The notes below the pieces were generated by a model. That model ran no database searches and was not told the DNA's origin. It worked only from the letters and a program-made list of their open reading frames with translations. A DNA stretch of 64,000 bases from Escherichia phage vB_EcoM_EP32a: the sequence record OR544954; one strand, given 5' to 3'. Position numbers and translations under genes: made by a program. The number at the start of each line of letters is the position of its first letter. Position 1 is the first letter of the stretch. Positions 7,852 through 9,623 of this stretch are shown here, in pieces.

Positions 7852-8367
7852 ATGAATATTCGTTTAGGCAGTACAATTCCTAAGGGCTACGTAATTGATG
7901 TCACTACCTAGGAAAATGATGGTGACAACTATAAAACCAAAACATTGTTTGAAGTGGAAGAGCATGAGCTCCAACAGTTTAAATATCTCTTGAAGAAATT
8001 TAAGAGTCGTCATTCTAGCACTAAAGCCGAACGTTATTGTGGTAATACACCATTCAGTGATTGCTCGCTTTTAATCTATGAATACTTGGTTGAAGGGCTG
8101 TTCTCAGACCAGCTTTATCCAGAATTTATTAAAAAGGTCTTTGATATTGAAGTCGACCTCGGTAATAAATCTGAAGAAGACGAAGCGCGTGTATTTGACC
8201 TGTTCCATGAGAATGGATATTTAGTATCAGAAGGTCTCATTGATATTCTTGGCCATGCTTCTGAATACTATGATTACGATTTCTTGCGTGTAGTTGAACG
8301 TGTCGAATTTGCTTATATTGAAGAAGAAATCGTTTTGCCAACCGTTAAAATGGTTGATTTGCTTTAA
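7852..8367 (+). CDS. hypothetical protein, reading frame interrupted by in-frame TAG at 7909-7911
   Basis: ATG 7852 with GGTGA SD opens MNIRLGSTIPKGYVIDVTT, then TAG, then the same frame continues ENDGDNYKTKTLFEVEEHELQQ... to 8367. Confidence 0.4.
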
Positions 8368-8446
8368 GAATTATGTGTTATTATTAATTCATACCCTCTA
8401 TTACCAAAGGTGCTCTAAAGTGCCTTTCATAATAGAAAGTTATTTA

Positions 8447-8520
8447 GGCCCTGTAGCTCAATGGTTAGCAGCAGTCCCCTCATAAGGGAAAGGTTACCAG
8501 TTCGAATCTGGTCTGGGTCA
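8447..8520 (+). tRNA. tRNA with CAU anticodon (Met, or Ile-AUA if lysidine-modified)
   Basis: Manual cloverleaf fold: acceptor GGCCCTG/CTGGGTC, T-arm ACCAG-TTCGAAT-CTGGT, anticodon loop CTCATAA; D-stem imperfect. Confidence 0.7.
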
Positions 8521-8526
8521 TATATT

Positions 8527-8603
<77 letters not shown>

Positions 8604-8621
8604 ACTTTAAGTGAGGAAAAT

Positions 8622-9017
8622 ATGAAAGGCAATGTTTATCTGGTAGTTCATGATTTAACGTTTTATTTTAACGAACGTGAAACAGTTATTTCCGACCGGT
8701 TGATTAATTCGTTATATCAACACGCTGATTACGTTTATTTCCAAAATGAATTTGGCCATTGGAAGTTCATTAAAAACCGTTCTGGGTTAACTAGTTTTGA
8801 ATACTTTGACCGTAAAGACCTTTTAAACGAAATCCCATTGCAACATCGGTTCCAGAAACGCGAATCATTATATTATTGCCGTCATATATCAAATGCTGAA
8901 TGTGTTGATGAAGTAATTAATCTATGGCGTAGACGTAGAGAAAACAAATTGATGATATGTCAAAATAAGAAGCCGGGTCGCTACCGGCAAGTCGTCGGAC
9001 TGATGTTCCCTGAGTAA
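8622..9017 (+). CDS. hypothetical protein
   Basis: ATG after GTGAGGAAAA; the listed 8574 start would overlap the tRNA. Confidence 0.55.
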   Translation: MKGNVYLVVHDLTFYFNERETVISDRLINSLYQHADYVYFQNEFGHWKFIKNRSGLTSFEYFDRKDLLNEIPLQHRFQKRESLYYCRHISNAECVDEVINLWRRRRENKLMICQNKKPGRYRQVVGLMFPE

Positions 9018-9029
9018 GGACTGGTCTTA

Positions 9030-9280
9030 ATAAATCTTTACGATTTGTTAATATCCCCTTACATCACAGCAGAAACGGCGCACCGAATTATCGATTCGAG
9101 GAAATATCTTTGCCGTAAGCCGAGTAGCGTTTTTGACGGAACGTTCGGATATGGTCGAGATATGGCCTTTTAAAAATATTGAGTAGCGTCAACTGCTTAA
9201 TAACCGGGTTCGAATCCCGGCGTTTCGTACAAACACTTTGCCTTAGTAGGTGGAACCCCGACAAGGTTGCCGCAAGGCTT
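9030..9280 (+). ncRNA. candidate small stable RNA(s) (tRNA-like; analogous to T4 RNA C/D region)
   Basis: About 250 nt with no ORF next to the tRNAs; T-arm-like CCGGG-TTCGAAT-CCCGG at 9204-9220; repeated GAGTAGCGT at 9122 and 9181; ends at a terminator. Confidence 0.3.
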
Positions 9281-9308
9281 AGCCCCTTCCGAAAGGTCGG
9301 GGCTTTTT
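9281..9308 (+). terminator. rho-independent terminator
   Basis: GCCCCttccgaaaggtcGGGGC hairpin followed by TTTTT. Confidence 0.6.
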
Positions 9309-9320
9309 GAGGAAAATGTT

Positions 9321-9623
9321 ATGAGTCTTTACACTGAACTGAATAAAAAATCTGAAGAATCTGCTGAAACTATTTTTAAAAACGTGCAAAAGCGTATTTT
9401 AGAAAAGATGTATAACGCTGCAGCTAAAGGTGAAAAATCTTGCCGGTTTCCGATTAGGTGTTCTTCCGATTTATGCGCAAATACTATTGAATGGTTGGAA
9501 AGTGAAGGTCTTACGGTAGAGAAAAACCCGGCGACTTCTATTGGCAGTGAATCATATATTAGTATTTCTTGGGATAAATCAACAAAATTAAAAATAATGA
9601 TGTACAAGCACCAAGGATGGTGA
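9321..9623 (+). CDS. hypothetical protein
   Basis: ATG after GAGGAAAA; 100 aa. Confidence 0.5.
   Translation: MSLYTELNKKSEESAETIFKNVQKRILEKMYNAAAKGEKSCRFPIRCSSDLCANTIEWLESEGLTVEKNPATSIGSESYISISWDKSTKLKIMMYKHQGW

Follow-up and report, generated by a model that had tools for sequence, protein, structure and literature searches.

The question raised by positions 9030 to 9308 of the window (the whole stretch of DNA analyzed, 64,000 nucleotides from Escherichia phage vB_EcoM_EP32a) is what might be made from a region that follows two tRNA genes and appears to lack a protein-coding gene. From the letters alone, a first-pass annotation had suggested a homolog of the two stable RNAs encoded in the tRNA cluster of T4 or, alternatively, a degenerate tRNA. 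The former was supported by alignment of the region at 94 to 99% with hundreds of T-even genomes and by the match with rnaD and rnaC as annotated in T4, RB3, RB5, and Aplg8. With high probability, the locus is the rnaD-rnaC pair of a T-even, Mosigvirus-like phage, comprising two small stable noncoding RNAs at the 3' end of the tRNA operon, a statement that covers both their identity and the biogenesis outlined below. These RNAs ("species 2 and 1") have been recognized in phage T4 since the 1970s, for some 50 years, and derive from the tail of the tRNA operon. Judged by its sequence, the copy is identical to annotated genes; both elements are already known, and their detection here is a rediscovery. 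The operon was laid out as follows.

8357 to 8384, plus strand: putative T4-type middle promoter of the tRNA/stable-RNA operon, inferred from a MotA-box-like ATTTGCTTTA at 8357 to 8366, a 12-bp spacer, and TATTAT at 8379 to 8384
8447 to 8520, plus strand: tRNA with anticodon CAT, called Met by ARAGORN and Rfam, identical to T4 tRNA-Ile at 73/74 positions
8527 to 8603, plus strand: tRNA-Arg (TCT), found by ARAGORN and Rfam
8622 to 9017, plus strand: ORF of 131 aa (396 nt), phrog_3355, with no assigned function, between tRNA-Arg and rnaD
8965 to 9084, plus strand: rnaD (species 2 RNA) homolog of about 120 nt, with the 5' end set only by homology with the T4 annotation
9085 to 9090, plus strand: 6-nt spacer GAATTA between rnaD and rnaC, taken from the annotated ends in T4 and RB3 to be removed in processing
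9091 to 9229, plus strand: rnaC (species 1 RNA) homolog of 139 nt, a tRNA-shaped four-way junction, based on identity to RB3 and T4, covariation, and a covariance model
9230 to 9281, plus strand: conserved trailer with the core CACUU(U)GCCUUAG.AGGUGGAACCCCGACAAGGUU, kept in sequence in T4, Mosigvirus, Gaprivervirus, and Dhakavirus
9282 to 9308, plus strand: intrinsic terminator of the operon, with the stem GCCCC..GGGGC followed by five T residues

The order on this strand, with tRNAs, (ORF), rnaD, rnaC, and terminator, is that of T4, T2, and Aplg8. As first delimited, the region from 9030 to 9308 enclosed the whole of rnaC, the 6-nt spacer, the trailer, and the terminator, but its start fell in the middle of rnaD; since rnaD begins near 8965, the element starts about 65 nt further upstream. 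It had been placed "downstream of the two tRNAs" but does not directly adjoin them, as the 131-aa ORF lies between tRNA-Arg and rnaD. Two further claims held: the strong terminator was located as the stem at 9282 to 9303 with its T5 at 9304 to 9308, and the absence of a credible ORF was confirmed by finding 9030 to 9308 overlapped only by TTG-started ORFs of 42 to 58 aa.

ARAGORN and Rfam identified two tRNAs, at 8447 to 8520 and 8527 to 8603, which were the only hits at Rfam gathering thresholds in the whole 64 kb. Neither ARAGORN nor RF00005 called a tRNA in 8604 to 9400, ARAGORN found no tmRNA in the region, with no tag reading frame present, and no Rfam family, including the Y-RNA-like, 6S, and sRNA families, reached its gathering threshold for rnaC or rnaD. 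When 8900 to 9400 was searched against Rfam at a permissive E value, only sub-threshold, chance-level hits were returned, the best being tRNA-Sec, which scored 16.6 bits where 47 are required. A covariance search had been recommended in the first-pass annotation; Rfam 15 gave no family, but a covariance model built from the rnaC homologs scored the locus at 150 bits, as a single copy in the window. In phages without rnaC, the same model produced only weak hits, located on tRNA-Asn. To have taken the lack of a covariance-model hit as a refutation would have been misleading, because Rfam 15 holds no model for either RNA.

The identity of the two elements was established by comparison with other T-even phages. 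Megablast and blastn matched 740 to 799 T-even records. Blastn of 9020 to 9320 matched 799 phage records, mostly at 90 to 99% identity, and the features beneath the match in carefully annotated records (T4 NC_000866, RB3, RB5, and Aplg8) were rnaD and rnaC. The ends of the elements were mapped from the annotated regions of RB3, Aplg8, and T4 NC_000866. The best matches of 8400 to 9400 were Mosigvirus genomes, such as APCEc01 at 97%, identifying the window as that of a T-even phage. Positions 9091 to 9229 were identical to the annotated rnaC (species 1 RNA) of RB3 at 139/139 nt and to that of T4 at 137/139. The two substitutions relative to T4 convert a G·U to a G-C in the long arm and an A-U to a G·U in the 10-bp hairpin, and there was otherwise no difference of substance: T4 rnaC (T4s001) and its copies in RB3, RB5, Aplg8, and T2L are 139 nt long, and the window copy likewise lies between rnaD and the operon terminator on the same strand. 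The published northern blot probe for T4 RNAC (PMC9697503) exactly matches window positions 9091 to 9148.

The segment from about 8965 to 9084 was 86% identical to rnaD (species 2) of T4, 90% to that of RB3, and 100% to that of Mosigvirus mar005p1. Both invariant blocks of T4 rnaD (T4s002), 45 nt at the 5' end and 25 nt at the 3' end, are present in it; it has the same overall fold and likewise lies directly upstream of rnaC, and differs in its diverged central hairpin and in being preceded by an ORF rather than by tRNA-Arg. In T4, rnaC and rnaD accumulate late in infection as stable products, as confirmed by northern blotting, and rnaC is abundant and forms a discrete RNA of about 140 nt (PMC9697503). 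Their function is given as unknown in reviews and recent papers (PMC3014915, PMC9697503, PMC12685909).

The surroundings of the two RNAs were also consistent with a shared transcript. In T4, a middle promoter sits just upstream of the tRNA cluster and gives rise to one primary transcript; this terminates beyond the species I gene, and both the tRNAs and the species I and II RNAs are processed from it (PMC2330249). In the window, a candidate for such a promoter was found at 8357 to 8384. Its elements ATTTGCTTTA and TATTAT are presumably counterparts of the MotA-box and −10 consensus. No late-promoter motif TATAAATA was present within 2.9 kb upstream, and a dedicated late promoter was therefore not proposed. 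Of the tRNAs themselves, the Met label on 8447 to 8520 is probably wrong, its sequence being more in keeping with a CAU tRNA that is read as Ile after modification, and the tRNA-Arg (TCT) was unlike that of T4 in sequence.

In the window, rnaD does not directly follow tRNA-Arg as it does in T4 and RB3; the 396-nt ORF stands between them, as in T2, Aplg8, and APCEc01. This is a known variant of the arrangement and no ground for excluding the segment from rnaD. The last ∼17 codons of the ORF (about 51 nt) overlap rnaD. In APCEc01, Aplg8, and T2, the stop codon of the ORF is a UAA at the very start of rnaD. Compared with APCEc01, the window carries a 2-nt insertion (GAGAAAACAAATT versus GAG--AGCAAATT; window 8945 to 9017), and the resulting change of frame bypasses the shared TAA at 8966 to 8968 and lengthens the ORF by ∼17 codons. 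The insertion could be a true frameshift or a sequencing error in a run of A residues.

For biogenesis, the following steps are proposed from the literature and general knowledge. Transcription would start at the middle promoter upstream of the tRNAs, and the transcript would be cut by the host tRNA-processing enzymes. Cleavage by RNase P at the 5' side of the rnaC acceptor stem would also free the 3' side of rnaD, 3' exonucleases would then trim back to the stems, and the compact closed folds would leave long-lived RNAs. According to the classical literature, the 5' end of T4 rnaC is produced by RNase P from a dimeric rnaD-rnaC precursor. An acceptor/T-arm minihelix resembling an RNase P substrate is present in the rnaC of the window. 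The 5' end of the window rnaD, by its position, must be made differently from that in T4, because rnaD here follows the ORF and not tRNA-Arg.

To define the structure of rnaC, homologs were gathered from a phage collection and IMG/VR and aligned, giving 20 distinct sequences from at least nine T4-like genera. The parts of the molecule, in window coordinates, are as follows.

9092 to 9098 (CGAUUCG) paired with 9221 to 9227 (CGUUUCG), plus strand: P1, an acceptor-like 7-bp stem with an invariant tandem U·U
9099 to 9168, plus strand: long arm of about 25 bp, the middle of which is wholly different between two sequence types while the apical stem-loop is kept
9133 to 9138, plus strand: loop L6, UUGACG, at the apex of the long arm, complementary to L7
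Between the long arm and the 10-bp hairpin, plus strand: A-rich linker of 8 nt that includes AAAAU
9177 to 9202, plus strand: 10-bp hairpin in which 8/10 pairs covary
9187 to 9192, plus strand: loop L7, CGUCAA, capping the 10-bp hairpin and exactly complementary to L6
9204 to 9220, plus strand: T arm CCGGG-UUCGAAU-CCCGG, in which the middle pair varies among G-C, U-A, and A-U

The single sequence folded at −50.2 kcal/mol with an MFE z-score of −4.55. Across the alignment of 20 distinct sequences, 92.1% of cells were paired and 29/51 pairs were changed on both sides; these values were reached in 0/500 shuffles, and slid controls were ∼40% paired. RNAalifold independently reported compensatory changes in 26/43 rnaC pairs. 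In P1, the third pair showed a compensatory switch from A-U to G-C (4 versus 16 sequences). The length was 141 to 144 nt in all homologs when measured from the acceptor stem to the CAA tail. In the resulting fold, the acceptor-like stem is stacked beside the T arm, and no part resembles an anticodon loop. The tRNA-like T arm that had been read from the sequence as CCGGG-TTCGAAT-CCCGG was found where it was claimed, at 9204 to 9220, as part of a larger conserved structure.

Two lineages depart from this pattern near the tRNA-like end. In the MY742/IME523-type rnaC, the T loop UGCAUGC replaces UUCGAAU, with the T stem and everything else kept; the canonical T loop is therefore inessential for the rnaC family. 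In the Klebsiella phages of Marfavirus, the acceptor stem is followed by a 3' tail of U-CCA-A in place of the U-ACA-A found elsewhere, and only there are a discriminator and CCA encoded. The same lineage also has the compensatory loop change described below.

The two loops L6 and L7 were 100% complementary in every rnaC homolog, even where the flanking stems were unrelated. The hexamers themselves were invariant in all true homologs found, with the exception of Marfavirus, in which they read UUGGCG and CGCCAA, an A-U to G-C exchange. The case for contact is made up of this one independent compensatory event and the invariant complementarity. The chance that two 6-nt loops are perfect complements is ∼1/4,096, and the single compensatory event adds ∼1/18. 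The comparison thus points to a kissing-loop contact between L6 and L7. A loop-loop contact rather than an alternative ordinary helix was indicated, because the neighboring bases cannot extend the pairing. The contact is proposed to form either within one molecule or between two; an intramolecular contact would need bending at the internal loops, because the long arm has ∼25 bp and the hairpin 10 bp.

A repeated motif had also been noted in the region. The 9-nt sequence GAGTAGCGT does occur exactly twice in the 64-kb window, at 9122 to 9130 and 9181 to 9189, against a mean of 0.22 copies in shuffles, of which 1/100 contained at least two copies. One or both copies differ in SonariX, Marfavirus, and the PEi20 type. 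The candidate was rejected as a functional repeat since the homologs do not keep it; the repeat is real but, not being conserved as such, is probably not a functional unit.

For rnaD, eight diverse copies were compared (T4, RB3, T2, JE01, VR25, two Dhakaviruses, and the window). The 5' 45 nt and the 3' 25 nt were invariant among these eight copies, and the central hairpin occurred in three unrelated versions. The fold comprises a 5' hairpin, given below in window coordinates, a 7-bp closing stem, GUCGUCG/CGGCG(C)AC, and a variable long central arm.

8972 to 8988, plus strand: rnaD 5' hairpin GCCGG-GUCGCUA-CCGGC, with the loop GUCGCUA

In the consensus fold, which was derived from the same sequences, 96.5% of cells were paired and six pairs had double changes. 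The comparison gives moderate covariation support for an rnaD fold separate from that of rnaC. The sequence CGCUAC in the loop of the rnaD 5' hairpin (8979 to 8984) is complementary to GUAGCG at 9124 to 9129 and 9183 to 9188, within both copies of the rnaC repeat GAGUAGCGU. With ∼4 such 6-mer matches expected by chance at these sizes, this match is regarded only as a lead.

The downstream trailer was conserved in a different manner. Its ∼35-nt motif CACUU(U)GCCUUAG.AGGUGGAACCCCGACAAGGUU (window 9233 to 9268) was also found in TH55 and lies between rnaC (or rnaD) and the terminator, and no convincing structure or covariation was detected in 9233 to 9268 and its homologs. A trailer hairpin at 9240 to 9278 was considered as a third structured RNA and rejected, having a z-score of −1.06 against shuffles and an outer stem that is absent in T4.

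The two RNAs differed in their distribution. rnaC was found in Tequatrovirus, Mosigvirus, Gaprivervirus, Karamvirus, Kanagawavirus, Moonvirus, Gelderlandvirus, Kagamiyamavirus, and Marfavirus, always within a tRNA array, and rnaD only in Tequatrovirus, Mosigvirus, Gaprivervirus, and Dhakavirus. Karamvirus and the other genera lacking rnaD have rnaC without it, often between tRNA-Trp and tRNA-Gly, and in Dhakavirus (dhabil and C6) rnaD is joined straight to the trailer ...CACTTGCCTAGCAGGTGGAACCCCGACAAGG, with rnaC precisely missing. The Mosigvirus AV114 has neither. Since occurrence differs between genera, rnaC and rnaD are modules that behave like tRNA genes, each gained and lost independently of the other; both are under selection yet dispensable. 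The AV114 locus is a natural deletion in which the 5' part of an Asn-type tRNA (anticodon GTT) runs into the 3' end of rnaC, the junction falling inside the T loop, with rnaD and most of rnaC gone. The T-arm strands of this fusion mismatch, and the annotated "tRNA-Asn" was not called by ARAGORN.

Beyond these phages, a loop-agnostic pattern run against IMG/VR, the JGI metagenomes, and 185k GTDB genomes yielded no cellular homolog and no further loop variants, recovering only the T4, MY742, and Marfavirus types together with GC-rich chance hits in coding DNA. Across the 185k bacterial and archaeal genomes and the JGI metagenomes, no homolog was seen outside T4-like contigs. No match to rnaD and rnaC, in sense or antisense, emerged from a blastn comparison with 5,426 complete E. 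coli genomes, although short seed matches are beyond the reach of such a search; there was therefore no sign of host-derived or host-mimicking sequence.

With the identity of the locus in place, several functions were weighed for rnaC. The comparison with a canonical tRNA (RF00005) is instructive in both directions. rnaC shares with it an acceptor-type stem of 7 bp that runs directly into a 5-bp T arm with a UUCGAAU loop, the four-way-junction topology, the seat in a tRNA array, and tRNA-like spacing to its neighbors, but is 139 nt long, has neither a tRNA-sized D arm nor an anticodon loop of 7 nt, contains the tandem U·U, and has an encoded CCA in Marfavirus only. Without such an anticodon loop, and with both of its own loops sequestered, rnaC cannot decode, and given the tandem U·U in the acceptor stem and the lack of an encoded CCA in most lineages, it does not seem built for charging. 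It would therefore most likely act in trans as a tRNA mimic. At low confidence, rnaC is tentatively seen as a nondecoding mimic or decoy that would occupy a factor recognizing the acceptor/T-arm end of tRNAs; this factor could be a host tRNA-targeting defense enzyme or a tRNA-processing or -modifying enzyme. The MY742-type T loop UGCAUGC weakens those models that need a canonical T loop.

Nondecoding RNAs with a tRNA-like domain are known, among them the tRNA-like domain of tmRNA, the bacterial and phage Y-RNA-like YrlA, and the 3' tRNA-like structures of plant viruses. All resemble rnaC in fusing an acceptor/T-arm mimic that engages tRNA enzymes to a non-tRNA body; rnaC differs in matching no Rfam family by sequence or covariance model and in lacking a tag frame. 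In YrlA, the RNA termini make the Ro-binding stem and not an acceptor stem, and E. coli is not known to have Ro. Phage tRNAs, for their part, neutralize tRNA-targeting defenses, as T5 tRNAs do against PARIS or retron nucleases. These tRNAs, on which the functional guess for rnaC was modeled, resemble it in lying within phage tRNA arrays, in being needless on most hosts, and in having host-specific value. They are, however, true decoding tRNAs with altered anticodon loops, and rnaC could at most decoy readers of the acceptor/T arm.

An extended form of the mimic proposal is speculative and, taken as a whole, unlikely. It would make rnaC a widespread, structurally locked tRNA mimic, its body closed by the kissing contact, that serves as a decoy or inhibitor of a host enzyme reading tRNA 3' ends or elbows, such as a tRNA-targeting antiphage toxin, and rnaD an independent module with a comparable host-specific role. 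If true, it would explain how rnaC can be dispensed with in laboratory hosts and still be kept by at least nine genera. A host-specific role for rnaD is hinted at by experimental evolution of a T4-like phage on the semipermissive host ECOR34, in which the same rnaD SNP arose in all lines (PMC12685909).

The candidate functions were ranked with the trans-acting mimic first, followed by a purely cis-acting module, a base-pairing regulatory RNA, and last a pseudogene or small ORFs. Under the second of these, rnaD and rnaC would have no role in trans and would only aid the processing of the polycistronic tRNA precursor and protect its 3' end, by offering RNase P a site of entry and by blocking exonucleases ahead of the terminator. 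They are indeed the last elements before the terminator in T4-type phages, a tRNA-like shape would recruit RNase P, and some phages dispense with them. In Karamvirus, Kagamiyamavirus, and Gelderlandvirus, however, rnaC lies within the array and is flanked by tRNAs on either side, such as tRNA-Trp and tRNA-Gly, a position where protection of an end is not evident; a barrier role also leaves the invariant complementary loops and the fixed length unexplained, and the RNAs accumulate as stable products. A purely cis-acting role was accordingly considered rather unlikely.

Somewhat less probable still is that rnaC and rnaD are regulatory sRNAs that base pair with phage or host mRNAs. The term "small regulatory RNAs" has been applied to them (PMC9697503), rnaD has its invariant 45-nt 5' segment, and the convergent rnaD SNP arose during host adaptation (PMC12685909). 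Against this, neither RNA has a Rho-independent terminator of its own with a U tail for Hfq, and the invariant single-stranded stretches of rnaC are either short (the AAAAU linker) or used in loop-loop pairing. The blastn comparison with E. coli genomes likewise revealed no similarity or antisense match, with the reservation that short seeds would escape such a search.

That rnaC is a tRNA pseudogene without a function of its own, its T arm a relic, was suggested by the canonical T arm and acceptor-like stem, the seat in a tRNA array, the weak tRNA-Sec hit at 16.6 bits, and the entries tRNA-OTHER, tRNA-Lys, or 95-nt tRNA-Met in some GenBank records. The degenerate tRNA proposed at the outset nevertheless found no support, as the non-tRNA features of rnaC are under strong compensatory evolution across at least nine genera: the long arm, the 10-bp hairpin, the complementary 6-nt loops, and the tandem U·U are all conserved with many compensatory changes. 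No such covariation would be seen in a pseudogene, and that reading is therefore contradicted. The length is moreover fixed at 141 to 144 nt, ARAGORN and the Rfam tRNA model call nothing, and the T4 RNA is abundant and stable (PMC9697503), so that decay is very improbable.

Least credible of all is that the short ORFs over the region are real genes, since the CDS calls in many records ("hypothetical protein (x2)" in GenBank) and the existence of ORFs of 42 to 58 aa are outweighed by the TTG start of every ORF and its lack of convincing context, by substitutions among homologs that keep base pairs and not reading frames, by indels of 1 to 3 nt among homologs, and by the classically known RNA products.

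GenBank labels for the locus vary across T-even genomes. Most records have none; others read "hypothetical protein (x2)," "tRNA-OTHER," "tRNA-Lys," or a 95-nt "tRNA-Met," and few name rnaC or rnaD. With Rfam lacking a model, a covariance model like the one built here could repair the annotation of the locus in the deposited T-even genomes. The function of the species 1 and 2 RNAs is a small, long-standing question, and the comparative model makes it testable by cheap mutational tests. The content of that model is the tRNA-shaped junction, the invariant tandem U·U, the covarying complementary loops, and the independent gain and loss of rnaC and rnaD.

Downstream of the operon, an additional ORF of 465 nt (APCEc01_157) separates the rnaC terminator from the next gene in the closest relatives APCEc01, JK45, and AV114. 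The window is missing ∼618 bp there, at 9309 to 9321, and its terminator directly precedes the ATG at 9321.
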